A DNA stretch of 64,000 bases from Synechococcales cyanobacterium VAR_4_metabat_354 (GCA_031414775.1 JANOQI010000057.1:1-64000); one strand, 5' to 3'; positions 44,626-64,000 are shown, counted from the stretch's first letter. Program-made: numbers and translations. Notes: generated from the sequence alone by a model not told the origin.

Positions 44626-44694
44626 AATCGGCCTAGAACTCAATTACCTAGAGATTAATGAGATACTGAATGTTTGCCCTCCGACTTACTATCC

Positions 44695-45513
44695 ATGCGT
44701 CGAGACACGATCTTTTTCCAACTATTCCAACAGTTACCGACCCTTTTATTTGAGCTACTGCCTCAGATGCCTGATCGGGCTAATGAATATACTTTTGATT
44801 CGGTGGAGGTGAAGGAAACTTCTTTTCGGATAGACGGGGTTTTTATTCCGCCTGATTCGGCAGGAATAGTTTATTTTTGCGAAGTACAATTTCAACCGGA
44901 TGAGTTGCTTTACGAGCGAATGGTCAGCGAGATTTCGATTTACGCTTATCGTCACCGTAGTTTGTTCTCAGATTGGCGAGCAGTAGCGATCTATCCATCA
45001 CGTAGTTTAGAGCAATCAAACAGAGAAATAGTTGCGGAGATACTAGCAAGTGGCAGAATCACGCCGATTTATCTTGATGAGTTAGAACGTGAAGAGGAAT
45101 TACCAATAGGATTGGGCTTAATGGTTTTGACTACGCTGGAAGGCGATCGAGCTACGGCTGAGGCCAGGAGGTTAATCGGACAGGCACAGGGTAGTAGAGA
45201 TATAATTAATCTGGTATCAACGATCGTCTTGTATAAGTTCAATACTCTGAGTAGGGATGAGGTAGATCTGATGTTAGGAATTGAATTGCAGCAAACAAGG
45301 GTTTATAGGGATGCCATAGCTGAGGGCGAGCTTAAAGGAGAACAAGCCCTGATTCTTCGTTTATTAAATCGACAGGTGGGGAATGTTTCGATCGAGGTGG
45401 AGGCTCAGGTGAGAGCGTTACCGTTGTTATTGTTGGAGGAGTTGGGTGAGGCTTTGTTAGATTTTAGTGAAATGTCGGATTTGTTGGCTTGGCTAGGTGC
45501 CGATCGATCGTGA
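44695..45513 (+). CDS. Rpn-family (DUF2887/DUF4351-type) PD-(D/E)XK protein
   Basis: MRRDTIFFQLF, FRIDGVF and EVQFQ motifs; C-terminal LEELGEALLDF. Confidence 0.85.
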   Translation: MRRDTIFFQLFQQLPTLLFELLPQMPDRANEYTFDSVEVKETSFRIDGVFIPPDSAGIVYFCEVQFQPDELLYERMVSEISIYAYRHRSLFSDWRAVAIYPSRSLEQSNREIVAEILASGRITPIYLDELEREEELPIGLGLMVLTTLEGDRATAEARRLIGQAQGSRDIINLVSTIVLYKFNTLSRDEVDLMLGIELQQTRVYRDAIAEGELKGEQALILRLLNRQVGNVSIEVEAQVRALPLLLLEELGEALLDFSEMSDLLAWLGADRS

Positions 45514-48541: not shown

Positions 48542-50788
48542 ATGTCAGTAGATCCAAAGCTAAATAAATCGCCCGACAAGCCAACGATGGGAGGCGGCTT
48601 CCCCATTATTAGATATTGGGCTGAACAAACGATCACACCCACTGGCAGCAAACTATGGCAAATCCTCAATCACAAAAGTGCCTGTCTGTCTTGTGCCTGG
48701 GGCACCGGTGGCCAAAAAGGGGGCTTTGCCAACGAACTCGGTGAAACTCTCCAGCGTTGCGCGAAAAGTGTCGAAGCGATCGCGGCTGAATTGCAACCGG
48801 GGATTGAAAAACATTACTTCGATCGGCATAGTTTAAATGAACTTCAGAGCTTAACTTCCCTAGAGTCCGATCGTCTGGGAAGGCTGAGTTTTCCCGTAAT
48901 TAAACGAGCGGGTAGTAGTCACTATCAAAGAATTAGCTGGCCAGAAATTTATCAGATTGCCGCCACGGCCTTTCGTCAACCAGCCCATCGAGTGGCTTCC
49001 TATAGCTCTGGTCGTTCTTCCAACGAGGCCGCTTTTTTACTGCAGTTAATGATGCGATCGATCGGTTCTAATCACTTAGCCGATTGCTCCGATCTCTGTC
49101 ATGTCCCCTCCACCATTGGCTTACAGAATATGTTTGGCACTGGCACCTCGATGGTTAGCCTAGAGAGTCTCCGTCAAGCCGACTGTGTGGTGCTGATTGG
49201 TTCCAACGCCCCCGCGAACCATCCCCGCCTCATGAATGAACTAATTGCCTTGCGCGATCGCGGTGGTCAGGTGCTGGTGATCAATCCTATCGTTGAAGTA
49301 GGACTGGTAAAATTCGCCTCGCCCGCCCATCCACTCACTTCCCTATTAACCGGTTCAGAGATTTCTTCCCTCTATTTGCAGCCCATTCCCGGCAGCGATG
49401 TAGCATTGTTCGTCGGAATTCAAAAGGCTCTTATTGAACACAACCTCATTAAACCAAATTATTTGGAGGCTCATACGATCGACTGGCCAGCAGTAACCCA
49501 GCAAGCACAAGCCACCAGTTGGCAGCAAATTACTAGCACTTGTGGTGTGGAGCAGAGTGCCATCGAAGCAGCAGCACGAATGATTGGTCAAGCTCAGGCG
49601 GTAGTTTTTGCTTGGGCGATGGGGGTCACCCAGCAAACCAATGGAGTAGACAATGTCCATGCGATTGCTAACACGGCCTTGCTCACTGGTAACGCCGGTT
49701 GGAAAGGTACTGGCTTAATGCCCATTCGTGGCCACTCCAATGTCCAGGGCTTTGGTTCCATGGGAGTAACAGCGCATTTGCAACCCCGGATTTTGCAGGC
49801 GCTAGAAAAATTACTGGGTCGTCCGCTCAATTCCCAACCGGGCTACCGCACCCGGCAATTAATTGACGCCGCGAATGCCAACCAGGTGGATACCCTGATT
49901 TGTTTAGGCGGCAATCTCTACGGCGCGAATCCTAACCTAGCAGAAGCTCAAGCAGCGCTCGGCAAAATCGAGACGATTATCTACTTGGCCACCAAACCCA
50001 ATCCAGGACATTTCCACGGCCTAGCCAAACAAAACACGATTATTATTCCGGTCTTTAACCGCTTTGAAAATCCCCAGGCTACCACTACAGAATCTGGTAA
50101 CAATTTTGTGCGGCTCAACAATCCAGGAACTACGCATTTAGACCAAGCTGATTTAATTGCAGAAGTAGAATTTATTGCCCAGCTAGCCCACCAATTACAT
50201 GGAGAGCAACCAATTGATTGGCGGTTGTTGCAAGATCCAGTTTATGTTCGACAATTAATTTCCCAGACTATTCCAGGCTATGAAAAGATTGCGGAGATCG
50301 ATCGAACTAAAACGGAGTTCACCATCTCAGGCCGGATCTGCACCGCTGGCGAATTTCCGACCCCAACAGGCAAAGCCCAGATGTTTGTGACCCCGCTTCC
50401 CAATTTAGACTTACCAATACCCGCTCAACCGGGCGGTGATGGGACGGGCATTATGCTAGCACTAATTACTGGTCGTAGTTATTCTCAGCACAATACAGTG
50501 GTTTATAAAGAGGGCGATCGCTATCGCGGGATGCCCCATCGCAATTGTATTTTGATGAATGCTACAGATGCGCAGGCTGCTAATTTTGCAGAGCATCAAC
50601 GGGTGACAGTGCAAGGAGATGCCGGTCAGCTGGAGCAGGTGGAGATCATTTTGGGGGATGTGCGATCGGGAGCCGCTTTGATGTTTTATCCCGAAGTCAA
50701 TGTGATTTTCCAAGCACGTACCGATCCAAAGTCTAGGATTCCAGCATATAAGCGAGTACCAGTTTGGGTATATCCGACAGTCGGATAA
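48542..50788 (+). CDS. FdhF/YdeP-family molybdopterin oxidoreductase
   Basis: CLSCAW, SGRSSNE, DCSDLCH, PIRGHSNVQG and RSYSQHNT motifs. Confidence 0.9.
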   Translation: MSVDPKLNKSPDKPTMGGGFPIIRYWAEQTITPTGSKLWQILNHKSACLSCAWGTGGQKGGFANELGETLQRCAKSVEAIAAELQPGIEKHYFDRHSLNELQSLTSLESDRLGRLSFPVIKRAGSSHYQRISWPEIYQIAATAFRQPAHRVASYSSGRSSNEAAFLLQLMMRSIGSNHLADCSDLCHVPSTIGLQNMFGTGTSMVSLESLRQADCVVLIGSNAPANHPRLMNELIALRDRGGQVLVINPIVEVGLVKFASPAHPLTSLLTGSEISSLYLQPIPGSDVALFVGIQKALIEHNLIKPNYLEAHTIDWPAVTQQAQATSWQQITSTCGVEQSAIEAAARMIGQAQAVVFAWAMGVTQQTNGVDNVHAIANTALLTGNAGWKGTGLMPIRGHSNVQGFGSMGVTAHLQPRILQALEKLLGRPLNSQPGYRTRQLIDAANANQVDTLICLGGNLYGANPNLAEAQAALGKIETIIYLATKPNPGHFHGLAKQNTIIIPVFNRFENPQATTTESGNNFVRLNNPGTTHLDQADLIAEVEFIAQLAHQLHGEQPIDWRLLQDPVYVRQLISQTIPGYEKIAEIDRTKTEFTISGRICTAGEFPTPTGKAQMFVTPLPNLDLPIPAQPGGDGTGIMLALITGRSYSQHNTVVYKEGDRYRGMPHRNCILMNATDAQAANFAEHQRVTVQGDAGQLEQVEIILGDVRSGAALMFYPEVNVIFQARTDPKSRIPAYKRVPVWVYPTVG

Positions 50789-50986
50789 ATTTTTATAGTT
50801 AAAAGGAAAGATCTTAAATTGATTGCCAAATCTAGGTATTCTAGGTGTGCTGTGTAAGCTATGTAAATTTACTGAGTAAAAAATTGCTTATTTTGGGAAG
50901 TTCCGTAGATCAACCCTATTGACTCGATCGCCATTTAGGGAAAATGTGAATGTTCAAAACATCACATCTACTAGTTACCAACCCCG

Positions 50987-51787
50987 ATGGCCACTGCAAA
51001 CGCTGCTACCCCCGCTGCCGACAATCGCAACACGGAATCAATATCCTTATTGATGACCTATCACGAAAAACCGAGTGTCCCGGTTCGCAACAAATTAGTC
51101 CTACTCAATGCTGGTTTAGTTCGACAAGTAGCCCATCGTTTGAGTCGCCAGTGTGTAGAAAATTACCAAGATTTAGAACAAATTGGTTACTTAGGCTTGA
51201 TTCGAGCGATCGAGCGATTCAATCCTTATCAAGGCTGTGCCTTTAGCTCCTTTGCCATCCCCTACATTCGCGGCGAAATTCTGCACTTTTTACGGGATCG
51301 GAGCAGTGCCGTCAAGATTCCCCGCCGCTGGCAAGAACTAAAAAGAGAAGGCGAAAAAATGCGGCAACATCTCACCTTAATTCTCGATCGGAAGCCCAGC
51401 GATGTCGAAATTGCTGATGCCCTGCAAGTTACCATTGAAGAATGGTGCGCAGCCCAAGCCGCTGATCGCAACCGTCAAACTTTGAGCTTAGATGCCACGA
51501 TCGGTCACATGATGGATTATCCAGTAACTTTAGGTGATAGTCTTCCTGATATTTATGAACAGAATCGGCAACATGTAGAAGAAGAACGTCAACAGCTGGT
51601 AGGTATGATTAATCAGCTAGAGCGAAAAACGCAACAGGCGATCGAATGTGTCTATATCCAGGGGATGCCGCGAAAAGAAGCTGCCGAAAAAATTGGTGTT
51701 AGTCCCATGACTGTTACCCGCCACTTGCAAAAAGGAGTCAAACAGCTCTCCACCATGATGAATAACAATTGTAGTGTGGCAATCTAG
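50987..51787 (+). CDS. sigF: Group 3 RNA polymerase sigma factor SigF
   Basis: DLEQIGYLGLIRAIERF, IPYIRGEILHFLRD and GVSPMTVTR motifs. Confidence 0.9.
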   Translation: MATANAATPAADNRNTESISLLMTYHEKPSVPVRNKLVLLNAGLVRQVAHRLSRQCVENYQDLEQIGYLGLIRAIERFNPYQGCAFSSFAIPYIRGEILHFLRDRSSAVKIPRRWQELKREGEKMRQHLTLILDRKPSDVEIADALQVTIEEWCAAQAADRNRQTLSLDATIGHMMDYPVTLGDSLPDIYEQNRQHVEEERQQLVGMINQLERKTQQAIECVYIQGMPRKEAAEKIGVSPMTVTRHLQKGVKQLSTMMNNNCSVAI

Positions 51788-51794
51788 CAATTAG

Positions 51795-53879
51795 TTATTT
51801 TTCTGGCTGGAGATCATCCACTCGATCGATAATCGTCAGTTGTCCACCGCGCAAGTCTTGGTAATCAAATTCTACGCGGCGATCAAGAGCATAAGGCTGG
51901 TTTCCCTGTTCATTGCTACGGCGTTTGTTAAATCCAAAAGAACGCGTTGTCAACCGTTGGGAAGCAATACCCTGCTTCAGTAGATAGTTACGAACTGCTA
52001 CTACCCGGCGCATTCCTAAAGCTTGGTTATAGGCTTGGGAGGCACGAGGATCGGTATGACCAGACAAATCCACAGAAATGTAAGGATGGTCTTTTAGCAC
52101 CCGGGCAATTTCGATTAGTACTCGCGCCGAAGCTGGGCTAATAGTAGATTTGTTTAAGGCAAAATGCACATTGCGCGAAATGGTGAGCTTAGTCACAATC
52201 GAGGGTGACACAACTGCCAACGGTGGTGTAGGAACTTCATCTGGCGACTTCACTGTCAAAGAAGTCTCGGCCAGAGCACAATCGGCTGGAACCAGGTAAG
52301 TAGCTTTAGGCTTAACAGCAATACCCGGCATTGTAATCACGATATTATCAGCTGGTTCGGAAGTACCATATTTACGATCGCTGGCAATCGCACTTACAAC
52401 AGTACCAGGCAATAAATTTTGGAAAGTAGCTTGGAAGCGACCCTGGGAGTCGGCCATCACCTTTTTCAAGGGTTGAGATAGCGGCCCATTATTACTATCA
52501 TCGGGGTTGACTTGATAAATTTCCACTTCCGAGCCAGGATCAGCAACTCCATCTAAATTGACGCGATCGCCAATCAGATAAAATTCTGAGGCTAAAAAGC
52601 GGGGGGCATTAATGGCAGCATTCCCAGTATCGGAACGACGATTTTCGGTATTACGCGGCGGGTTAAGGCCATCACCATTTTGGAAGTCTTCGACAGCTTC
52701 GTTCCGATAAGTAATTAGATCAATACTTAAACCAGCGATTTTTTGAAAGCGATTGTTCGTAATCAGGTTGCGCCGGGATAAAGATTCTTCACTGGCAGCA
52801 AAAGCTGTAACGGCCACCCCAGAACCATTTTGGAATTCGATCGAGTTGTTAGTGACCTGGTGATCGTTGCCCATTAAGTAGATAGCCGCTCGCCGTAACC
52901 GCCGACCATTAGATTGCAGATGATTATTAGTAATTTTGACACTGCCAGCAGCAGGCTTAAAGACAAAAATTCCGCTACCATCGTTACCACAAATCAAATT
53001 ACCTTGAATTTTGTTTTGTCTCAAATTGCCTTCTAAGCGAATAGCATCAGGCATGCCTTGCGAGCCATTGCCGAAAATAGCGTTATTGGCAATTAATAAA
53101 TTGTTGGCATTGGCTTGGCTAATAATACCACTAGCACTATGGTATCCGATCGCATTGTGCCGAATCGTGGTGCCTTGGGAATTAAATACATACACCCCAA
53201 AATCGGAGGTTTGGTCAGGGATATTCCGATTAGGTAGAATACCTAGCCAGTTATTTTCAATTAGCACCCGCTGGGGAGCCGACCTGTCATCAAGCTGGGG
53301 GTAATTACTGGTACCGACAAAAATATCTGCAGCTGGGATGTTTTGGGTCGCAGCTTGGTTGCCGACCCGAAAGCCATAGATACTCAGACCAGTCACCGTA
53401 ATATCGTCAGCCATAATCGACAGACCACGATTAATTTGCTGGCCGGGAGCCGGAGTAATTTCCACCGACGGCGTAGCAAAAGTCAGATTTTGAATAGCTG
53501 CTTGGCTACGGCTCTTGCCACCATCGATCGTCACTTTACTCTTAATAATCGCCGGTAGTTCGGAGCGCAGAGCAATCTGGCTTTGGCCTTCAGATAATTG
53601 AAATTCCAGAAGATGACCGTTAGCGTTGGTCAGTACTTTTACTTGAAGTTGTTCAGCAGGGCTGAGTCGATCGAACTGAAGTTGGCCATTACTGATACTG
53701 ATGGCTTCTCTCAAAGTGAGAAATTGATCAGCAACAATTTCATCGCGATTACTGTTGATAGTAATTTTGAAATATTGCTCTGGAGCCGCGAGACTGACTG
53801 ATGGCCATAGTCCTACTAGACTAACCAGAAACAGCCGCGACAGGGAAGAATAACTAATCGGGAATAAAGTGTTTTTCAT
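51795..53879 (-). CDS. Secreted parallel beta-helix protein with C-terminal OmpA-like peptidoglycan-binding domain
   Basis: Signal peptide, LTLREAI motif, Asn/Gly beta-helix repeats, and GHTD...YNQALGMRR...DRRVEF. Confidence 0.85.
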   Translation of the reverse strand: MKNTLFPISYSSLSRLFLVSLVGLWPSVSLAAPEQYFKITINSNRDEIVADQFLTLREAISISNGQLQFDRLSPAEQLQVKVLTNANGHLLEFQLSEGQSQIALRSELPAIIKSKVTIDGGKSRSQAAIQNLTFATPSVEITPAPGQQINRGLSIMADDITVTGLSIYGFRVGNQAATQNIPAADIFVGTSNYPQLDDRSAPQRVLIENNWLGILPNRNIPDQTSDFGVYVFNSQGTTIRHNAIGYHSASGIISQANANNLLIANNAIFGNGSQGMPDAIRLEGNLRQNKIQGNLICGNDGSGIFVFKPAAGSVKITNNHLQSNGRRLRRAAIYLMGNDHQVTNNSIEFQNGSGVAVTAFAASEESLSRRNLITNNRFQKIAGLSIDLITYRNEAVEDFQNGDGLNPPRNTENRRSDTGNAAINAPRFLASEFYLIGDRVNLDGVADPGSEVEIYQVNPDDSNNGPLSQPLKKVMADSQGRFQATFQNLLPGTVVSAIASDRKYGTSEPADNIVITMPGIAVKPKATYLVPADCALAETSLTVKSPDEVPTPPLAVVSPSIVTKLTISRNVHFALNKSTISPASARVLIEIARVLKDHPYISVDLSGHTDPRASQAYNQALGMRRVVAVRNYLLKQGIASQRLTTRSFGFNKRRSNEQGNQPYALDRRVEFDYQDLRGGQLTIIDRVDDLQPEK

Positions 53880-56800
53880 GGCGCTGACGACTCCTGTTTT
53901 TGAACGGGGGTCAACGATGGTTGACTAACATCCCCAGTGACTTGTGACTCTTTCTTGGGAGGATTTAACGGTTGTTGTGAACTAGCATTCTTAGTCACTT
54001 GCGATTCCTGTTGTTGAACAGGGTTCAACTGTTGACGACCAAAGCCGCCAAATAATTCATTAACTTTGACAGTCAAGCCGACATATGGACCATTGGCATT
54101 CCGACCACCGCCATTCGGGTCATCAGATACCCCTAAGCTATAGCCAGCGGAGAGCCGCAAATCGGGAGTGAGATAGTAGCCAGCTTCGATCGCTGCACCA
54201 ACTTCACTTTGGCCAGTGGCGAATTGATTCAACCAGCGCACATCGCCAGTCAGATCCCAGTTGTAGCCGAGGCGGTAAGTAGCCCGCAGTTGACTGATGC
54301 CGATGGCACTTCCCGCTGTCAGGGACTCATCCAGATAACTGGTAGCGTTACGCAAAGCATATTTGCCTGCAAATTCCCATTGCCAGTTCGGGGCATAAAT
54401 TCCTTCTAAGGCTAAGGTGTGGTCTTCGGAGCCAGTACCGACACTGGTTAAGATACTAGTAGGCAACAAGGATGGATTTTTGCGATATTGATAACTGAGA
54501 AAGCCATTAAATTCATCGCTAACTGGATTGCGGAAGGCCATGCCCAGCTTGAGGTTAGTGGTAGCTCCCAATTGGCTAGTAGTTCCCGATCCAGCATCCC
54601 GAATAATCTGGTTGGCGGCACTGGATTGCTGGAATCTAAACAGAGCAGTCAATTCGGGTGTTAGCTTACCCGTGGCACCAGCCGAGATGTTGCTACTGCT
54701 TGCTAAATTAGAATTGCGGTATTCATAACGAGCATTAGCTTGGAAATTGGGGTTGTCGGTATAATTGACAGCCACACCATAACTATCGCCGCTAGTTACC
54801 CCTAATGAAGACGACGTTTGGCCTAAGCTATAGGGTTGAGAATATTGCTGACCAGCACCAGTAGAAACATTCACGCCACCACCAATCACTCGATCGTAAT
54901 TCAGGTCTAGCTTTAAACCAGGACTGAGGACAATCCCTTGCTGCATTCCTACTGATCCGATCGATTGAAACGGACTGAGTGAATAGCGGCCTGTCACCTT
55001 AGTACTAGGAGTCAAACTATAACTACTGTCGAAATCCAAACTCGTATAGCTAGTATCACCATACTGGGCACTGGAAATCAGGTTTTGACTGAGGCCAAGT
55101 TTGATGCCGGGGAAGACTGTCCAGTCAATGCCTAAGGCACTACGGTTCGGATAAACAACATCTTGCTGGCTGCTCAGGTTGGTTTCGTTTTGAGCACGTA
55201 AGGCCAGAGTATTAGTCAGTGGCCAGCTAAAGCGCGATCGAATCTGATCGGAAGACACATTGGCTTGATTTGGATCTAGTGTCAATCGGTCTTGACGATT
55301 ACGATTGACATAATCCACATCTAAAGTGGCGGTGCCAAACCGCTGCTGAACACCAGCTGTAATGGTTCTTAAGTCATTATCAACTAAGCCAGTTGCCGGA
55401 TTGACGGGAGTAAGTAGGTTGGCAATGTTGCCATTAACCAACGGTGGCGCACCCCGATTTTCTTCTCGATCGACCTGTAACTTTAAGCTAGTGCTGTCAC
55501 TCAGCCTGGTTAACAGATCGGCACCGTAGCGAGTTTGACCCGGTACAAAGCTGGTAGTAGCATTATTGGCAAAACCCGCTTCGCTACTGCGTAGATAAGC
55601 ACGACCGGTAGTAGCATCGCTAAATTTAAACTGGCCTTCCAGGCGCATCGCGCTGCCAGTAATGGGGCTACCAGCTCCGGTATTGTTAGAAGATCGAGCA
55701 TATTCAGCCACGATATTACTAGTGGAACCCAGAGAAATCAGGGCATCCGCACCAAGAATACTAAAGTCGCGAATACCTTGATTCTCTTGTGTCCAGCTGG
55801 CACCGATCCAACTTTCTTGACCAGCCGATCGATTGAGATTGTATTGAGCGCGACCACCATAAATATTGCTATTAGTACCGCTAGCATACTGATAAGTAGC
55901 CACTAAACGACGCACTAAGATAGTGCCATTATCAGCAACACTCGTCCGTAATAGAGGACGACGGAGTAAGATGGTACCTCGATCGTAATCTACCTCGTAG
56001 TCTAGACCTCGATTCAGAAACTCTTGTTTAACCACAGTGCCTGGTCGATCGAGTTCTTCTGATTCGATCATCAGGTTTTCGCTACCACCCAAAATCAGGC
56101 GCTGCGACAAGAAATAAATGCCACTGGTGCCATCGGGGGCAATATTGTCCCGCTGGAAGCCCTGGACATTATCACCATAGAAGCCACTTACTAAAAGGTC
56201 ACCAAAGTTGTAGTTTAGTTTAGCACCGTGCAAGTTGCGGTTGGTGGCGGTGAATTGCTGCGATCGATTAGCAAACTCGTTGGTGCCATAATCGCCCCAC
56301 ATGGCCATATTTGGCACATTTCCTAACACCCCAGTAGAGCTTTCTACTTTTAAGAAAACGCTATCGCGGGAAGGAGTCAACACGTCTACTTTAGAAGTAT
56401 CACCATAAACTGGATAAACTTCTTCGCAAGATTGACTACTGTAAGTATCACGAGAGAGTCGATCGTTAGTACCACACAGTTTATTAAGTGGCCGATCGGT
56501 ATTTAGAGCACCAGTTACCGCCCAGTCTCCAATGCGACTAGTGGCAAAAGCCTGGCCTCGTACTTGGAGTTGAGTACTATTATCTCGATCGATCGGCAAG
56601 AATTCGGTGAAAGGCCGATAGTAATCGGTACCCCGCGCTCCCAGGCGGAAGTCTACTACACCAGTAGCGATCGAACTGCGTAAGTTGGTTTCAAACTGTA
56701 CCTGGGCAAAGGCTTCCAGATTTAGGTTGGTGGCACGGACGCGGACTGTTTGGGCATCTAAGCCTGCTCGCAACTTGGCAGTGAATCTTCCTTTTTGGAC

Positions 56801-57496
56801 AGGTACCTGAAATCCCGGTTGATCCTTGTTAGTGTCAATACCGGCAAACTCACCAGCACTAGTATAGAGAGTAACGATGCCATCTTGTTTGGTAACGTTA
56901 CCATTGTCATCGAGTAGCTGACCATCTAAGTTAACTAGAGACCGACCATCAGCTGGAATGCGAGTTTCGGCGCTGTTCAGTTGGATCTTAGTTGGTGTCC
57001 CGGTTACTTGGATCGTAGTGGTGGATACTTCGCCTTGGCTGGTTTTGGCGGTAACAGTATTTTTACCAGCACCGAGGGATACCCCATACCAAGTCTGGGT
57101 AATTAGCTTAGTGCGGCTATCAGTTTCGGTACGACCAATTAGTTTACTATCGACTGGTTGATTGTTGACTTTTAGCTCAACTGTGCTACCAACTTGATAT
57201 TGTAAAACGACGGTAGTCGCTGGAATATCTAAGACACTATTGGGGGTAGGAGCCAGAATCTGGACGGCTGGCGAACGCTGATTTTCAGGAGCGGGCGGTG
57301 CTGGCGCTGTTCCTACAGGAACAACTATAGTAGGTGTAGCTGGTGAAATATTTTGTTCAGCTGGGGCTGACGATTTCACTGGTGCCACGGCATCAGTTTG
57401 AGCAAGGGCAGGGTTGACTAGTAGCAGTCCGAGGCTACTAATTGCTGTACCCAGGCATAAAGCTCTGAGCATTGTGACTATCAGTTGATGCTGCAT
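53876..57496 (-). CDS. Large outer-membrane protein (N-terminal Ig-like domains plus predicted large beta-barrel)
   Basis: Signal peptide, IPADGRS Ig-like motif, and a long region of alternating amphipathic strands ending YVGLTVKVNELF. Confidence 0.75.
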   Translation of the reverse strand: MQHQLIVTMLRALCLGTAISSLGLLLVNPALAQTDAVAPVKSSAPAEQNISPATPTIVVPVGTAPAPPAPENQRSPAVQILAPTPNSVLDIPATTVVLQYQVGSTVELKVNNQPVDSKLIGRTETDSRTKLITQTWYGVSLGAGKNTVTAKTSQGEVSTTTIQVTGTPTKIQLNSAETRIPADGRSLVNLDGQLLDDNGNVTKQDGIVTLYTSAGEFAGIDTNKDQPGFQVPVQKGRFTAKLRAGLDAQTVRVRATNLNLEAFAQVQFETNLRSSIATGVVDFRLGARGTDYYRPFTEFLPIDRDNSTQLQVRGQAFATSRIGDWAVTGALNTDRPLNKLCGTNDRLSRDTYSSQSCEEVYPVYGDTSKVDVLTPSRDSVFLKVESSTGVLGNVPNMAMWGDYGTNEFANRSQQFTATNRNLHGAKLNYNFGDLLVSGFYGDNVQGFQRDNIAPDGTSGIYFLSQRLILGGSENLMIESEELDRPGTVVKQEFLNRGLDYEVDYDRGTILLRRPLLRTSVADNGTILVRRLVATYQYASGTNSNIYGGRAQYNLNRSAGQESWIGASWTQENQGIRDFSILGADALISLGSTSNIVAEYARSSNNTGAGSPITGSAMRLEGQFKFSDATTGRAYLRSSEAGFANNATTSFVPGQTRYGADLLTRLSDSTSLKLQVDREENRGAPPLVNGNIANLLTPVNPATGLVDNDLRTITAGVQQRFGTATLDVDYVNRNRQDRLTLDPNQANVSSDQIRSRFSWPLTNTLALRAQNETNLSSQQDVVYPNRSALGIDWTVFPGIKLGLSQNLISSAQYGDTSYTSLDFDSSYSLTPSTKVTGRYSLSPFQSIGSVGMQQGIVLSPGLKLDLNYDRVIGGGVNVSTGAGQQYSQPYSLGQTSSSLGVTSGDSYGVAVNYTDNPNFQANARYEYRNSNLASSSNISAGATGKLTPELTALFRFQQSSAANQIIRDAGSGTTSQLGATTNLKLGMAFRNPVSDEFNGFLSYQYRKNPSLLPTSILTSVGTGSEDHTLALEGIYAPNWQWEFAGKYALRNATSYLDESLTAGSAIGISQLRATYRLGYNWDLTGDVRWLNQFATGQSEVGAAIEAGYYLTPDLRLSAGYSLGVSDDPNGGGRNANGPYVGLTVKVNELFGGFGRQQLNPVQQQESQVTKNASSQQPLNPPKKESQVTGDVSQPSLTPVQKQESSAP

Positions 57497-57499
57497 GAC

Positions 57500-59158
57500 T
57501 TATTTGACCTCACGCGCGGTAGGTGTAACGCCAAAGTTCATACGAGCTATTCCACCTGGTGCTAGTTTTACTAATCGCGATCGACTGTTTCGTTCGCTAA
57601 AATATAAGTTGGGAGCAGGGCTGTATCCGGGTAGGCTGCTGAGGTCTAGTGCGCCAGTCCGATAACCAGCGACGACTGATTGCACGGAGAACAGGCCATT
57701 GGGATCGGTAGTGATTCGGTTGCCATCATCCATGAAGATGACGGCGTTAGGAATACCGGGTTCGTTGCCCTGTTGTTGGCCATCGAAGTTTTTATCGACG
57801 AAGACACGGCCAATGAGGGTGCCGGTATCACGAATCAAACCTGGGCGAATACTCAATGTATGAGTAGCCGGACCATCAATTAGAACAGTAATATTGCTAT
57901 TATTATTGGCACTACTAACGTTATTGTAAGTACCGCTCAAGGTGGCAAGATTAAGACCAGTACCACGAATGGCATCTGTGCCTAAAGTGACGGCGTAGAC
58001 CAAATCAACAACCTTTCCAGCAGGAATGACAAATTTAGGTGCGCCGACACTACTACACAAACCATTAGCTATAGTTATCGGTACGAGCAGAGCTGTTACA
58101 GGAGTAGTCCCGATCTGGAAGCAAGCAATATTGCCTTCTTGCTTCAGAGTAACTGGCTCAGTCCTCAGACCAAAAGGAGTTGTACTACCAGGAAGAATCC
58201 TGTCATCGTACCATTGAGCCTTAATCGAATTCGGACGTATCGACATCCCGAGAGGTAAAGTATCTGTAACTATTGGGTTTAAAATATCATCAGGAGAATT
58301 ATTCTTGAGGGCAATGCGATAAACTACGGTATCACCTACTTCAGCAGTAGCTCGATCGGCACTTTTAGTAATCTTGGCAGGTTGGCTGTCACATACTCCA
58401 ATCCCAACCAAAGCGACTCTCGCCGCATCACTGACATCCACCACAACATTTTGGGTAACTCCCTCAGTAGTACTAAGCGGTTTGCCATCGAGAGAAGTAG
58501 CTCTGTAACTCAAGATACCGCCATTAAAGCCAGTAATATCTATCCGGACGCGACGTTCACCATAAGTGGAACCAGCTGGTGTTTTAACGATGAGAATATA
58601 GCTCTTGCCGATCGCAATTTGGCTCCGATTAAAAAGGAAGTTGTATCGACCTTCACCATCGGGATCGAGCGGGTATGGATTAATGTTGTCAAGGTTCGGT
58701 GGAATACGATCTTGCTGAGGAGAGCCGGCAGTGGAAGTAAGCTGTAATAAAGTAGTGGGGTCTAGATTGTTAGGTGCTACATTGTACAATCCAACAGAGA
58801 AGTCTTTATAACTAGATAAGCGTTCACCCTGACAGCCTGTGATAATACCCAGTGGATCGATTAATCCAGAAGGATCAGCGATAACTTTATTGCTAACACC
58901 CTCGATTAGGGTGTTTGGATTACCTGGATCGACGTATTGGTAATCAGCTTCGTTGATAATTTTTGGTGGTGGTGGCGGATCTACTATGGGTGGGTTATTT
59001 TGAGCGATCGAAGGCTGAGTAGAAACCAAAGTGGCCAGAACCAGCCCCGTGACACAATTTTTAAATAAATGAGATTTTGGCCGAAAGGGCTGGAATCTGG
59101 ACACGAGATTATTCCTGTAATAATTAATCGATGGGAGCTTTCGAGGGGAACCCCCCAT
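57500..59158 (-). CDS. Secreted DUF11 plus SdrD-B-like domain protein
   Basis: KITKSADRATAEVGDTVVYRI...IVTDTLP (DUF11) and GRVFVDKNFDG...EPGIPNA (SdrD B-like). True start probably downstream of 59158. Confidence 0.8.
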   Translation of the reverse strand: MGGSPRKLPSINYYRNNLVSRFQPFRPKSHLFKNCVTGLVLATLVSTQPSIAQNNPPIVDPPPPPKIINEADYQYVDPGNPNTLIEGVSNKVIADPSGLIDPLGIITGCQGERLSSYKDFSVGLYNVAPNNLDPTTLLQLTSTAGSPQQDRIPPNLDNINPYPLDPDGEGRYNFLFNRSQIAIGKSYILIVKTPAGSTYGERRVRIDITGFNGGILSYRATSLDGKPLSTTEGVTQNVVVDVSDAARVALVGIGVCDSQPAKITKSADRATAEVGDTVVYRIALKNNSPDDILNPIVTDTLPLGMSIRPNSIKAQWYDDRILPGSTTPFGLRTEPVTLKQEGNIACFQIGTTPVTALLVPITIANGLCSSVGAPKFVIPAGKVVDLVYAVTLGTDAIRGTGLNLATLSGTYNNVSSANNNSNITVLIDGPATHTLSIRPGLIRDTGTLIGRVFVDKNFDGQQQGNEPGIPNAVIFMDDGNRITTDPNGLFSVQSVVAGYRTGALDLSSLPGYSPAPNLYFSERNSRSRLVKLAPGGIARMNFGVTPTAREVK

Positions 59159-59164
59159 AAGTAA

Positions 59165-59671
59165 TTAGCGAATCCGAACTTCGTAGCTCAAATTGCTTTG
59201 AGACCGGGGTGCAACACTACTGGTAAAAGCCCAACGGACGTTGGTATAGTTGCCAGCAGCTGCTGGCTTTTTATCGAACATTGGTTGTGCGCTATAGCTT
59301 CTACCACCATCAGTACTAAAAGTCAGTTGTGCGCCTTTAACAGGAGTAGCAGAATTCAGGACGTAGGACGTGCCGGGGCGAATTTTCTGGTTGAGAATTA
59401 GTTTGTTCACTGGCTTGGTGCTAACGTTGTTGGCAGCAATTCGATAGACAATGACATCACCAGGCTTAGCACTAGCAACGGATACTAGCTTGAAGCCTTT
59501 TTTATCAGCAACTTTTTTGAATTGAGAAAGCTTCAGCTGAATAGATTTCTTGGCGGCTACTTGCGCTCCTACTGGCTGAGTGAATTGGCCGATAACTGGC
59601 AAATTACCGCTGACTAAAACAGTAGTGGATAGTGCCATCATGGCGATGGTGGTAGAAAGTAAACGTTTCAT
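59165..59671 (-). CDS. Small secreted DUF11-like single-domain protein
   Basis: Signal peptide from MKRLLST; AKPGDVIVYRI, IRPGTSYV and YTNVRW...LSYEVRIR. Confidence 0.8.
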   Translation of the reverse strand: MKRLLSTTIAMMALSTTVLVSGNLPVIGQFTQPVGAQVAAKKSIQLKLSQFKKVADKKGFKLVSVASAKPGDVIVYRIAANNVSTKPVNKLILNQKIRPGTSYVLNSATPVKGAQLTFSTDGGRSYSAQPMFDKKPAAAGNYTNVRWAFTSSVAPRSQSNLSYEVRIR

Positions 59672-59856
59672 ACGTGGGATTACTCCGGTATAGATGTAAA
59701 AGGTCGGGCACAGCCCATGCAAACTAGTATTCCCAGAGAGGATGCTAGACTTGCTATGGCTTAACGGGCAAGAATAAAAATATATTGGGGCTATGAGTAA
59801 TAGCCGTTTTATTTATGTACTTAATTAATTATTTACTGGTCTAGATCTAGAAGGCA

Positions 59857-59884
59857 GGAGATAGAAACCGTGGCTTCTATCTCC
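59857..59884 (-). terminator. Stem-loop immediately downstream of the large secreted gene
   Basis: GGAGATAGAA-N8-TTCTATCTCC perfect 10-bp stem. Confidence 0.7.
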
Positions 59885-59893
59885 CGTAAGTAT

Positions 59894-62362
59894 CTAGTTC
59901 AATTTACGTTTGAAGCTAAATGTACCAGTGCTACCAGGAGCAACTACAGTTGTGACAGTATCAACATATTTAGTGATGTCAGTAGCAGCAGTTGTACCAG
60001 ATTGGTCAACCGAAGTAGTACCACCAGCTGGGTCTTTAAACAAACCAATGGTGGAGGTAGTGTCTGGATCAACCGCTGAACCTACGACGTTACTAGTATC
60101 TAGCGCGCCGTTACTATCAGTATCTTTAGCCCAAGTATTAGTACCAGTAGTACCATTCTCAGTAATTACTAAATTGGCAGCCTTCATGACAGAGCTACCA
60201 GTACCAACTAACTTATCCGAAATATTTTCGTAAGTAATGCGATACTCAATGATATTGCCGGAAGCTGGCTTCTTATCGGCAGTGCTGAAGTTAACGTCAG
60301 CTGGTAAAACTGCTGGGCCGGTGCCTTGCAAAATACGAGTTTCTTTGGTCAGTTTGACGAAACCGGTGTAAACACGATCGATCGTTTTGTTAGTAGCTGT
60401 TGGTGCTGCCAGTGCAATATCCCCACCAGTAGGAGCAGTTACAGTACCACCAGTAAAGGCATTAATTACAACAGGGAAACTTTCTAGTGGCTTGGTGGTA
60501 GCATCTTGAGCCAGGTCAACGCTGACTTGGTATGCAGCAAGCGCATCAGGTGCCACAGCATTTAAGGTAACTGGGTTAGTAGCGCTAATGGGGCCATTGG
60601 CATTACTACCAACACCAGAAAGTGGCTTGAAAGTAAAACCAGTAGCAGTGGCTACATAAGTAGCTTCTTGACCATTAGCAGAAATTTTAACTTCAGTGCC
60701 TACTGGTAATGGATCACCAGCTAATAATTCTGGCAACAGAGAAATGTTAGCAGCAGCACCACCAGTATTTCTGACAGTATTGTTGAAGCCAGCAGCAGCT
60801 GGATCAAAAGTAGCCGTTGGTGCAGTACCAGCAGGTACGGTGGTGGACTTATTCGTAAAGTCATCGTTAGTGTTAGTTGGACCAATTGCTTCTGGTACAC
60901 CTACTGGACCATTCAACAGGGAATTTGTTGCTGCAGCAGTGAACGTATATTTGTATTCGTTGATTTCACCAGCAAGGCTACCAACAGCACTGTTGTCGTT
61001 AGCAGTATCAACCACAAACGCCGGATCAGCTACACCAGTGGTAATAGCACTGGAGCTAGGAGCAGCAGGCGTAATGGGAGTAGCCGAATCGAAGTTGTTA
61101 GGAGTTTGGTCACCAGATTCGTCATAAACAATCGCAGTTGGTGAACCACCAGCAGTAGTACCAAAAGCTTGTGCCATACTATCGATCGTGTAGGTAGTAG
61201 CAGTAGGCGCAACACCACTAGTGACAACCTTGAAGTTGAAACCAGTAACTTCGGCACCAGGCGCTACAACAGCAGCATTAGTATCGGTGATAAAGCCTAC
61301 GCGCTTGTAAACTGCTGCTGGATCAAAGGTTGTTACCCAGGCAGTAGTCGGATCGTTAGCAAATGTGCTGGTTGAAGTAGTTGTGTAAACTGCTGTCCAG
61401 CCAATTGGTGCAGTCGCTGCTGCGGCTAACTTAGTACCATCAGGAATTGCACTAGAAACCAAGATCCGGTTAACGGTGCTAGGGCCAGAGCCAGTGTCTA
61501 CTGTCAGAGCTGAACCGGCTAAAGCACTAGGAGTAATACCAGAGTTAGTAATATCTGTGCTCGCAACTTTCAAACCAAGGCCGTAGCTGATTACATCATC
61601 AGATAAGTTGGCTGGAGTAGCATTATCACTAACGCCAGTACGAGTTTCAGTGACAGTGGCCAAGGCAATATTCTTGACTACGGTACCAATATTAACTGAT
61701 TGAGTCGCACTACTTTCGCGTTGACCGTTGGCTGGAGCACCACCAGTAGTATTAACGTTATTGGGGTTACCATCAGCTACCAGGGGCTGGTTTGGTTGGT
61801 CACTAGGAGTGTTACCTAATTGAACGGCAATAGTAGAGCCAGTACCATTATTAACAGTCACTTCTGCGCGGACTTGGACAACACCACCGGCAGCAACGTT
61901 CGGTACATCTACACCAGCTGCTGGTACAGGCTTCCAGATATTATCAGCAGGGTCTAGGTACTCCAATTTGTTAAAAGTACCAGGACCGGTCACAGTGGGC
62001 TGACCAGGAATGCGTATAGTAGTGGAAGTGTTACCAACGTTGGTAACAGTGTAGTCAAACTCTAGCTTGTCGCCAACAGTAACAGCACCACCAGGGTTAG
62101 TTTTATTAACGATACCGCTACCGGAAACATCAATACCGGCAACATCAGCAACAATCACCTTAACTTCGTTAGAAGTAGCGTTGATGGGAGTACCGGGGTT
62201 ACCTGGATCATCATAGCTAGCAGTAGCCGTGTTGGAAATAGCAGTACCGGCAGCTGTCTCAGCCAACACTGGTGCCACTAACTGTAAAAGACCACCACTC
62301 ACCAAAAGAGTAACCAGAAGAGGGCGAGAGTATTTCATCATATTAATATTGTTTACTTTCAT
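59894..62362 (-). CDS. Large secreted Thr/Ala/Gly/Asn-rich multi-Ig (DUF11-related) protein, candidate major fibre subunit
   Basis: Signal peptide (PVLA|ET), AGTAISNTATASY N-terminus, and repeated Y-T-V-T-N-x-G-N / NTVRNTG / IIEYRITYEN Ig motifs. Confidence 0.8.
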   Translation of the reverse strand: MKVNNINMMKYSRPLLVTLLVSGGLLQLVAPVLAETAAGTAISNTATASYDDPGNPGTPINATSNEVKVIVADVAGIDVSGSGIVNKTNPGGAVTVGDKLEFDYTVTNVGNTSTTIRIPGQPTVTGPGTFNKLEYLDPADNIWKPVPAAGVDVPNVAAGGVVQVRAEVTVNNGTGSTIAVQLGNTPSDQPNQPLVADGNPNNVNTTGGAPANGQRESSATQSVNIGTVVKNIALATVTETRTGVSDNATPANLSDDVISYGLGLKVASTDITNSGITPSALAGSALTVDTGSGPSTVNRILVSSAIPDGTKLAAAATAPIGWTAVYTTTSTSTFANDPTTAWVTTFDPAAVYKRVGFITDTNAAVVAPGAEVTGFNFKVVTSGVAPTATTYTIDSMAQAFGTTAGGSPTAIVYDESGDQTPNNFDSATPITPAAPSSSAITTGVADPAFVVDTANDNSAVGSLAGEINEYKYTFTAAATNSLLNGPVGVPEAIGPTNTNDDFTNKSTTVPAGTAPTATFDPAAAGFNNTVRNTGGAAANISLLPELLAGDPLPVGTEVKISANGQEATYVATATGFTFKPLSGVGSNANGPISATNPVTLNAVAPDALAAYQVSVDLAQDATTKPLESFPVVINAFTGGTVTAPTGGDIALAAPTATNKTIDRVYTGFVKLTKETRILQGTGPAVLPADVNFSTADKKPASGNIIEYRITYENISDKLVGTGSSVMKAANLVITENGTTGTNTWAKDTDSNGALDTSNVVGSAVDPDTTSTIGLFKDPAGGTTSVDQSGTTAATDITKYVDTVTTVVAPGSTGTFSFKRKLN

Positions 62363-62724
62363 CGGGAGAAGAACTCGGGGTTTAAACTAGGCTTGTTTAA
62401 CTAATCGGCATCGCACAGACTAGCTTCAAATTCATGATTCACCCAAACTCAGTCAAAATTACTACACCTCTCACCTTTTTTCTAAAGTTCAGTGGAAATA
62501 GCAAAAACAACATTAGATAGTTTTGAAAAACCAGCTATAAATACGGAGCAGGCAATAAGAATACTGTAATTTAATCTTGTCTTCAGGGGCTTTCAGGCCG
62601 TTACTAAGTACCTTTACTGAATCAAGTAAATCCGGACGAAAATATATTTATCTTAGTGATATTAAGACTTGACAATCTAAATAAATATGATAATCCGGTC
62701 TTTTATTGCTATCTCTAAAAACCC

Positions 62725-62760
62725 AAAAAAAGGGGCACGTCCCTGCGGAAACGCACCCTT
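62725..62760 (-). terminator. Intrinsic terminator after the Rpn-like gene
   Basis: Minus strand reads AAGGGTGCGTTTC-CGCA-GGGACGTGCCCC followed by a T tract. Confidence 0.75.
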
Positions 62761-62785
62761 AGCAAAATTCATGAATCTATTTGAA

Positions 62786-63691
62786 CTATATTTCCTGAGA
62801 CTGGATGGCTTGGACTCGATCGTTAGCGAAGCGTTCCACCTCGGAAATTGATAGCTCTGTAATTGAGGCAACATCTTCTACAGACATACCCTTTTTCAAC
62901 ATTTTCAGTGCAATCTCTTTTTGAGTTTCCTGCTGGCCGCGCTTAAAACCAATTTTTTCAACACTGGTAACGTAAGTCATCTTTTTATCCTCTTCGTAAG
63001 CTTTAAAGTCATTCCAAAAACTGTTACTCAATCCTTCAGGCAAAACCAGAATCCAGTCAATGAACTTAAACAAATCTACTACCTGGCTTCTATTGTAGCC
63101 CCTTTCATAGAGTCCCCTCACCAGCTGAAACTTCCAATTCTTCCGCTCCTGATCCTTACTTTTCATCTCCTGCGCCTTTAGGTGAGCCATCACCACAACC
63201 GCAAACGGGTTGGCATTAGACTCCAATTCTTCCCATTGCTCTTGGTAATCTAGCAACTTCACTGCGGTGAAATTAAATTCCAACGAAGAGCCTGGAGCAG
63301 TTAATAAATGCTCTTTCGGTCGCCAGGTAGAATTAGAATCACACAAGATAGCTAAACTGCTGGGTAATTGATTGAACCTATCATAGATACGCATCGCATA
63401 GGTCAGCATCCTCTCTTCAAAGTTTTTCTCTTTGCTAGCTTGGATTTCCAAGTGCAAAAGTAGCATCAAAGACTTACCCCGCCTGAGCTTCACCTCCACC
63501 AACTGGTCGGCGTATCTCTTACCCACTTCAGCATTGGGCGAGAGCTGCTGAAACTCCTTGTCTAAAAAGACTGGCGGCGATTGCCAATCAATTAATTGTG
63601 CAATCATGGGAAAGAAGAATTCGATGGCTTCTGGAAAATATGCACGCAGCATCGACTTCCAAGGGGAATCTGCATCATTAAATTTAGCCAC
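62786..63691 (-). CDS. Rpn/YhgA-like putative transposase or nuclease (cyanobacterial multicopy family)
   Basis: DSPWK, FLDKEFQQ, HLEIQ, NPFAVVVMAHL and MTYVTSVE motifs. Confidence 0.82.
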   Translation of the reverse strand: MAKFNDADSPWKSMLRAYFPEAIEFFFPMIAQLIDWQSPPVFLDKEFQQLSPNAEVGKRYADQLVEVKLRRGKSLMLLLHLEIQASKEKNFEERMLTYAMRIYDRFNQLPSSLAILCDSNSTWRPKEHLLTAPGSSLEFNFTAVKLLDYQEQWEELESNANPFAVVVMAHLKAQEMKSKDQERKNWKFQLVRGLYERGYNRSQVVDLFKFIDWILVLPEGLSNSFWNDFKAYEEDKKMTYVTSVEKIGFKRGQQETQKEIALKMLKKGMSVEDVASITELSISEVERFANDRVQAIQSQEI

Positions 63692-63821
63692 GATACTTCA
63701 CTAAAAAACAAGCGCCCTGATTCTATCCCGTAATTGGTCGGTTGTTGAATTTCCCTTTAGCCACAAACCATTAGTCGATTGACAGCTCTGCAATTAGCTT
63801 GAAAGATTATATAATAGGAAA

Positions 63822-64000
63822 ATGACCCATACTTTTAATCGCGATCGATATAAAGATTTATTATCTGAATATCAGCCCAAACTAGTTAAAACAGAAGCCG
63901 AGAACGATCAAGCATTAGCCATGATAGAACGGTTGATGCATCTATCTCATCGTACTCCCGAACAGCAAGAACTTTATGAATTACTAATTGTTTTGGTTGA
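63822..64000 (+). CDS. HigA-like antitoxin / HTH regulator, partial (runs off the window)
   Basis: MTHTFNRDRYKDLLSEYQPKLVKTEAENDQALAMIERLMH...EQQELYELLIVLV; AGGA RBS. Confidence 0.65.
   Translation, partial: MTHTFNRDRYKDLLSEYQPKLVKTEAENDQALAMIERLMHLSHRTPEQQELYELLIVLV

Follow-up and report, generated by a model that had tools for sequence, protein, structure and literature searches.

What is built by five co-oriented genes for probably secreted proteins among which none of the usual engines of pilus assembly can be recognized, and how would such a structure hold together? The question is raised by five open reading frames (ORFs), here named genes A, B, C, D and E, on the minus strand at 51795..62362 of a DNA stretch of 64,000 nucleotides from the Synechococcales cyanobacterium VAR_4_metabat_354 (GCA_031414775.1, JANOQI010000057.1:1-64000). 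This whole stretch is called the window, and positions are counted from its first letter. An initial annotation made from the sequence had read the genes as a self-contained, non-canonical fibre assembly system. We found that a domain of the A protein is split between the two ends of its chain, and the operon probably encodes a pilus assembly system that has not been described before and relies on known chemistry. A literature search limited to open-licence PMC and bioRxiv texts, which leaves subscription papers and preprint supplements outside, yielded no description of this operon.

Layout of the operon

Gene A (62362-59894) encodes 822 amino acids (aa) and the predicted major subunit, with a signal peptide, a donor hairpin, three immunoglobulin (Ig)-like domains at residues of about 76-225, 230-474 and 478-667, and an incomplete acceptor domain. 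The protein is rich in Thr (14.8%) and Ala (12.9%), contains no Cys and has an isoelectric point (pI) of about 4.3. Gene B (59165..59671) encodes a lone acceptor domain of 168 aa with a pI of about 10.6, predicted to act as a reversible cap or as a chaperone of donor hairpins; judged from the sequence its start is most likely the ATG at 59671, behind a GGAG, giving 168 aa rather than 185. Gene C (59158-57500, 552 aa) is the predicted base or terminator, gene D (57496-53876, 1206 aa) combines two N-terminal Ig domains with a predicted closed β-barrel, and the accessory gene E (53879-51795, 694 aa) encodes a β-helix, an Ig-like domain and an OmpA-type peptidoglycan-binding domain; neither donor nor acceptor was found in E. 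Three bases separate C from D, and D and E overlap by 4 bases.

All five proteins start with a hydrophobic stretch followed by an AxA-like site, according to a crude hydropathy check rather than a signal-peptide predictor. Searches against Pfam and NCBIfam returned DUF7925 in A (E 1e-53), the DUF11-type repeat TIGR01451 in B (E 2e-7), DUF11 (E 9e-10) and a weak SdrD_B match (E 0.002) in C, one Ig-like match in D, and a β-helix plus OmpA in E, for which the best 25 of 31 NCBIfam matches were considered. No ATPase, prepilin peptidase, sortase, PapD or usher family was among the matches listed for the five proteins. The initial annotation is thus borne out on the five co-oriented genes with putative signal peptides, whose ORFs were confirmed in place, on the domain make-up of A, B, C and E, on the abutting or overlapping last three genes, and on the lack of an ATPase, prepilin peptidase, sortase or PapD chaperone among these matches.

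A DUF11/CLIPPER domain is split between the two ends of A

DUF11 has been renamed CLIPPER, an Ig-like domain with an internal, Asp-catalysed Lys-Asn bond and a crystal structure (9IFR) (PMC12617251). The C-terminal acceptor of A (59897..60364, minus strand; residues 667-822) contains Lys673 and Glu735 on strands of the DUF11 type but breaks off ahead of the strand that bears the Asn, so that the domain is without its last two strands. Two such strands open the mature protein: they form the donor hairpin (62159..62248, minus strand; residues 39-68), which carries Asn44. A contiguous Lys-Asp/Glu-Asn triad is therefore absent from the terminal domain of A, its Asn sitting at the opposite end of the chain.

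The split triad is invariant. We aligned 191 homologs of A, 76 from the loci described below and the rest remaining from the best 120 of 330 database matches after removal of redundancy, and found N44, K673 and an E or D at 735 in 191/191 each. An internal control is provided by the CLIPPER-like DUF7925 domain in the middle of A (60941..61675, minus strand; residues 230-474): its own K/D/N triad is intact in 157/191 homologs and lost as a set in 23/191, including the protein studied here (E239, S304, S395), whereas the split triad was never lost.

Structure predictions and co-variation point in the same direction. In an AlphaFold model of A the hairpin 41-63 reaches a predicted local distance difference test (pLDDT) score of 91-97 and the acceptor scores above 90, which suggests that the hairpin is docked. 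The donor couples most strongly with the acceptor (D51-G813, z 6.4), and those antiparallel donor-acceptor registers that score best fit the strand pairs expected from the fold. Run against internal segments with intact repeats, the donor profile hit the final two strands with at least 5 bits in 8 of 30 segments, versus 3 of 600 shuffles. From the sequence we infer that donor and acceptor pair between chains and that Lys673 would bond to Asn44 of the neighbouring A subunit.

Domain 2 of A superimposes on the CLIPPER structure 9IFR with Z 8.6 and a root mean square deviation (rmsd) of 2.8 over 122 aligned residues, and its best fold matches are the pilin and adhesin domains BcpA, SpaD and CLIPPER, with Gram-positive pilin domains among them. 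The fold searches barely reached the two ends of A. Foldseek with the whole of A gave only generic multi-Ig matches (TM ≤ 0.17), and a sequence search of the PDB with A gave none. We also noted a match of domain 2 to the Thermus thermophilus hypothetical protein TTHA1873 (7WRK; Z 7.9, rmsd 2.6); T. thermophilus also gave a match to DUF7925, which lies below the cut-off.

Gene order is conserved from A to D

A scan of species-representative genomes with D identified 331 related stretches, of which the best 79 loci were kept, so that this set leans towards close relatives. Sixty-eight of them have at least 6 kilobases (kb) of upstream sequence; A, C and D occur in this order in all 68, and B is present in 67. 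The order is A-B-C-D in 60 loci and A-A-B-C-D, with a tandem duplication of A, in 5; A-B-A-C-D, B-A-B-C-D and A-C-D occur once each. E follows in only 27 of the 69 loci with enough downstream sequence. The co-occurrence of A, B, C and D is far beyond chance, as the initial annotation required of a real system, and A-B-C-D is the core of the operon with E as an optional addition. The cluster is not self-contained, contrary to what had been claimed, since E is so often missing and since the probable tip and minor subunits are encoded on a different contig (see below).

The source genome is cyanobacterial, judged by the adjoining sigF and by the relatives of the D locus. In a sample of 201 genomes of the phylum D turned up in 30, one of them the source genome, and its profile matches 2,469 clusters (50% identity) at E ≤ 1e-10. 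Twenty-seven plasmid records with D relatives add Thermus and several Proteobacteria; four were examined, from Thermus brockianus, Acinetobacter haemolyticus, Sinorhizobium and Eleftheria. The ESM Atlas contained no model of D or B; the clusters matched there by feature came from Pseudomonadota, Cyanobacteriota and Acidobacteriota and either carried no name or were DUF11 clusters.

The Thr/Ala-rich A gene is followed by an RNA hairpin, as had been noted before (59855-59886, minus strand): it has 14 pairs and no U tail, and none of 200 shuffles was as stable (z -4.9). Of the A genes, 41 of 79 are followed by a hairpin at z ≤ -3, compared with 26 of 72 of the B genes. Located 3′ of A, the hairpin may raise A over the downstream genes. 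An Rfam search of 50500-64000 gave no match at E ≤ 0.5, and promoter and terminator counts were not above those of shuffles.

Donors and acceptors follow a grammar across partner proteins

B consists of a single DUF11-type domain, not of the two domains of a PapD-type chaperone, and matches the acceptor of A and the DUF11 domain of C with hhalign probabilities of 88-93%. Homologs of B and C were aligned (n = 74 each). The acid position of B is Q or R in 74/74, and no Lys is found at the assigned Lys position in 74/74; the B proteins of Thermus and Acinetobacter also lack the acid, although the Acinetobacter protein may keep the Lys. C starts with a donor hairpin (Asn69), continues with an Ig-like region and a complete DUF11 domain (K265/D299/N403) and ends in an SdrD-B-like domain, with no open acceptor. 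Its donor matches that of A with an hhalign probability of 94%; N69 is kept in 70/74 homologs and the internal triad K265/D299/N403 in 74/74. With this donor start, complete triad and SdrD-B-like end, C can donate but not accept.

Candidate partner proteins were found elsewhere in the genome. Contig G000:C36 carries five large co-oriented genes at 76276-93522 (L084:276-17522) for secreted-type proteins of about 1317, 1179, 866, 681 and 1222 aa. An acceptor that has both Lys and Asp closes each of the five proteins. Two start with a donor; three have adhesin-like N-terminal regions (GEVED, β-helix) in its place. The five proteins are likely tip and minor subunits for the operon of the window. 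Donor hairpins thus start A, C, two of the four C36 proteins tested, and Thermus and Acinetobacter proteins; a motif search for a donor in the fifth C36 protein found none. We aligned 13 C-terminal acceptors from the source genome, Thermus and Acinetobacter. All 13 end before the Asn strand; the ten from proteins other than B keep the Lys and an Asp or Glu, and the three B proteins are without the acid. The acceptor of the Thermus A protein matches DUF11 (E 8e-10, profile positions 2-66), and a PDB sequence search with a Thermus acceptor gave only chance matches.

The plasmid loci of T. brockianus and A. haemolyticus encode B, A, C and D together with a large protein that has an acceptor only. 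In A. haemolyticus (L080:8701-22208) C and D are fused into one chain of 2008 aa. In the annotation of this locus the A-type gene is broken into several short pieces, and there are transposase genes in the vicinity. Fusion of this kind is common: among the best 150 barrel matches, 56 proteins have at least 1700 aa, and the C-terminal module of C is fused to the barrel in 52 of these 56 long D relatives. An N-terminal donor is found in 34 of the 56, versus 1 of 560 shuffles. A two-gene form occurs in Sinorhizobium and Eleftheria (L081:746-14616 and L083:4311-16544), where a D-family barrel follows one giant DUF11 adhesin of 3362 or 2647 aa that ends in the module of C; no A or B is annotated in the stretches examined. 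The Eleftheria barrel carries an OmpA domain. The C-termini of the giant adhesins looked OmpA-like by eye as well; NCBIfam gave nothing or E 0.07, and this assignment was not used.

A proposed donor-strand fibre and its alternatives

With the split domain and its invariant triad, the distribution of donors and acceptors, the gene order and the C-D fusions in hand, we consider it fairly probable that the operon makes a donor-strand, isopeptide-locked pilus, i.e. a surface fibre with covalently locked junctions that D would anchor by way of C. The N-terminal two-strand hairpin of each A would slot into the next subunit, complete its C-terminal DUF11/CLIPPER domain and rebuild the Lys-Glu-Asn site, where the Lys673-Asn44 bond would form without an enzyme. 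Acceptor-only adhesins from contig C36 would start the tip, minor subunits with donor and acceptor and many copies of A would extend the shaft, and the donor-only C would end it and tie the fibre to D by the periplasmic Ig domains of the latter. On its way out the chain may traverse the wide D barrel, gated by the plug. B, an acceptor unable to bond, would shield donor hairpins in the periplasm until D is reached, which is the weakest step of the scheme; alternatively B could cap the tip. Where present, E would tether the apparatus to peptidoglycan. Assembly would be driven by the folding energy of strand complementation, not by ATP. The function is likely adhesion, aggregation or mat formation. 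The earlier roles of A as major subunit and of C as base adaptor are supported by genes and models; the mechanism through a split domain had been missed.

A short adhesin stalk with the same chemistry, in which one or a few subunits stand between a tip adhesin and C-D, or a self-closed, monomeric and ring-shaped A is the strongest alternative, and we regard it as unlikely. The tip pilin GBS104 is recorded as having a discontinuous intramolecular isopeptide domain of the CnaA-like type (PMC12617251, Table 1), and our single-chain model of A is confident at both ends. However, C and the C-D fusions are donors without an acceptor, and B and three C36 proteins are acceptors in which no donor was found, so exchange between chains must occur there; moreover, the donor of A abuts domain 1 and the acceptor abuts domain 3 with no linker, so that closure in cis would need a tight ring. 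The tandem copies of A and the hairpin behind it suit an abundant shaft subunit, although the giant single-chain adhesins share the barrel family and a finite length would therefore be normal for this barrel.

Still less probable is an S-layer or envelope mesh, in which A would strand-exchange into a two-dimensional Ig lattice or a periplasmic brace, D would be an export pore and E a wall tether. Subunits that each bear a single donor and a single acceptor would join into a polar line and not a sheet, and dedicated starters and a terminator typify polar fibres, even though OmpA-type domains recur beside or within the barrel. The acidic, Thr/Ala-rich, Cys-free multi-Ig make-up of A would suit a mesh, but the best matches of its domain 2 are the pilin and adhesin folds named above. 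In Deinococcus the HPI S-layer is formed by interdigitated Ig arrays; HPI homologs are, however, lipoproteins mainly of Deinococcales (PMC10120038), and their N-terminal Cys has no counterpart in A.

Several observations weigh against the donor-strand fibre that we favour. The fibre, the passage through the D barrel and the role of B are predictions from genes and models. Docking of the hairpin in A was read from pLDDT and not from coordinates, and a single-chain model cannot separate docking in cis from docking in trans. Co-evolution gives only a thin signal, at an effective depth of about 86: the best couplings of the donor to the other domains of A reach z 4.1-5.4, with row shuffles at 2.9-4.3. 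All 8 internal matches of the donor profile are repeats of one protein; hhalign gave no match of the A donor to the intact DUF11 domain of C (probability 1.6%) and only 31% for A donor versus A acceptor. The excess of hairpins after A over those after B is modest, and the codon bias of A (0.44) lies under the 95th percentile of the genome (0.46). Finally, the model of D (residues 33-1206) is of moderate quality, with a mean pLDDT of 70.7 and a predicted TM score (pTM) of 0.56.

D is predicted to be a very large outer-membrane barrel

The model of D shows two N-terminal Ig domains (about 77-270) and a barrel (about 274-1145) with 39 strand elements outside the plug; a small β-domain (about 460-537) is inserted after about the eighth. 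Porins align from residue 242 to 1113 and span the first and the last strands, which together with the 39 elements argues for one closed barrel of 38 or 40 strands. The expectation that the 1206-aa protein is a barrel with a plug is thereby supported at the level of the model. It had also been called usher-like, which is an analogy: the model of D has about 38 strands versus 24, and no match to the usher family PF00577 was found in D or 11 of its relatives (E ≤ 0.1-1) or in the source genome, with a positive E. coli control. FimD, which aligns with the first part of the model only (Z 13.2, rmsd 12.3, 355 aligned; Z 11.7, rmsd 7.7), does not surpass unrelated porins in this respect; a distant kinship of D with ushers may nevertheless exist. 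Foldseek matched the barrel to SprA, SlpA, MtrB and LptD with TM ≤ 0.21, the leading SprA and SlpA matches being at 0.17-0.21, and with no usher in the top rows, and a PDB sequence search returned only β-galactosidase Ig domains, at the N-terminus.

That D is a TonB-dependent receptor beside unrelated secreted proteins of an uptake locus, as the NCBI and UniRef names of its homologs would have it, is very improbable, because no TonB-receptor profile matched D or 11 relatives, TonB receptors have 22 strands and an N-terminal plug whereas the model has about 38 strands and an internal insertion, and the long relatives are fused to C-type modules; the database name looks wrong. A link to Anabaena All3289 (1289 aa), a possible outer-membrane anchor (PMC9705863), was considered and found no confirmation. 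Some cyanobacterial D proteins (L018:7988-13360, L022:8333-13360, P0311, P0312, P0314 and P0317) carry 500-700 extra residues, which match neither C nor the donor. Among outer-membrane barrels of solved structure the largest are SprA of type IX secretion and SlpA with 30 strands, very large single chains as is predicted for D, and three 38-stranded barrels have been predicted in Deinococcus radiodurans, with no function stated in the available text (PMC9388160).

Comparison with known systems

CLIPPER/DUF11 (PF01345) and DUF7925 (PF25546) have the same CnaA-like fold and Lys/Asp-or-Glu/Asn triad as found here, and the bond on record lies inside one domain of one chain, in fibrillar adhesins (PMC12617251). 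In our system the terminal domain is instead cut before its last two strands, and partner proteins supply the Asn from their N-terminus; the main text of that paper never uses the word 'split'. DUF11 filaments on record are single giant chains: in the grappling hooks of Litorilinea, GhlA forms tandem-DUF11 stalks in which one polypeptide spans the fibre (10.1101/2025.08.19.671072), whereas here separate subunits would have to join into the stalk. In the available text of PMC13297417 a cyanobacterial DUF11 protein is mentioned only as a source of a signal peptide.

The closest parallel to the predicted lock is BsaA of Clostridium perfringens, a member of the TasA family with a donor Asn at the N-terminus and an acceptor Lys with a catalytic Glu, as is predicted here; an autocatalytic bond between subunits is predicted for it, and donor-strand exchange and lock are supported by mutations (PMC11580942). 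The TasA/camelysin family of BsaA goes with a SipW peptidase and occurs mostly in monoderms (PMC11580942). Our system differs in its two-strand donor, multi-domain CLIPPER subunits, a partner with a dead acceptor, a donor-only anchor and an outer-membrane barrel; no TasA/camelysin or SipW match was among those listed for the five proteins, and the flanks consist of sigF and a transposase-like gene.

The layout recalls chaperone-usher pili (Fim, Pap), which have the division of labour that is predicted here, with an acceptor-only tip, a shaft of subunits with donor and acceptor, a terminator, a small periplasmic helper and a plugged outer-membrane barrel, and which, like the predicted system, use no ATPase (PMC13721041). 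Their donor is, however, a single non-covalent strand, their two-domain PapD donates a strand and their usher has 24 strands (PMC13721041), whereas here we find a two-strand donor, a CnaA-like fold, a predicted covalent lock, an acceptor-type helper and about 38 strands. By analogy the lock resembles BsaA and the layout chaperone-usher pili, and the parts belong to neither. The archaeal threads are a looser parallel than either: Saci_0406 subunits join head to tail through donor strands and isopeptide links into a filament, and the subunit gene has a putative cap gene as its neighbour, but Asn57 of Saci_0406 bonds the N-terminal amine of subunit n+2, and the archaeal system has no outer-membrane barrel (PMC9715654). 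As regards sortase pili, A and B end at a β-strand without a hydrophobic tail, and no sortase match was listed; type IV pilus families (pilins with class III signal peptides, prepilin peptidase, ATPase, secretin) were likewise not among the matches listed for the five proteins. The earlier view that the system is distinct from type IV, chaperone-usher and curli fibres is supported, as no matching parts were found among the five proteins.

Taken as a donor-strand fibre with known chemistry, the operon has about an even chance of being placed by experiments in a class of its own. We are evenly divided on the broader proposal that it represents a distinct and widespread pilus class of two-membrane bacteria, in which split CLIPPER chains would click together as pairs, enzyme-free, ATP-free and covalently locked. 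This proposal would include a chaperone of the acceptor type acting opposite to PapD, an export and anchor barrel of 38-40 strands that would be larger than any solved, and a barrel family that also serves giant single-chain adhesins, adhesins and pili being two forms of one secretion pathway. If true, an undescribed pilus assembly pathway would exist in many cyanobacteria, Thermus and Proteobacteria, and a function would be found for a barrel family of about 2,500 clusters often called TonB-dependent receptors. To our knowledge, the subunits of non-type-IV cyanobacterial fimbriae have not been identified; the proteins described here would be candidates for these fimbriae and for adhesion in mats and lichens.

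Neighbouring genes

A sigF gene at 50987-51787 on the plus strand is convergent to the operon. Only 3 of the 79 loci, all from close relatives, are flanked by sigF on this side (two convergent and one co-oriented pair), and sigF was therefore not counted as part of the operon. A second sigF, 82% identical to that of the window, lies 1.2 kb downstream of the C36 genes (G000:C36:94716-95513), so that both fibre-related loci of this genome adjoin a sigF copy. In cyanobacteria, pilus and surface genes are under the control of SigF; the pairing may be due to chance, as it is seen at few other loci. Transposase-like genes of the PD-(D/E)XK type are found near the operon at 62786-63691 on the minus strand, with weak Pfam support, and, recognized by eye, at 44674-45513 on the plus strand.

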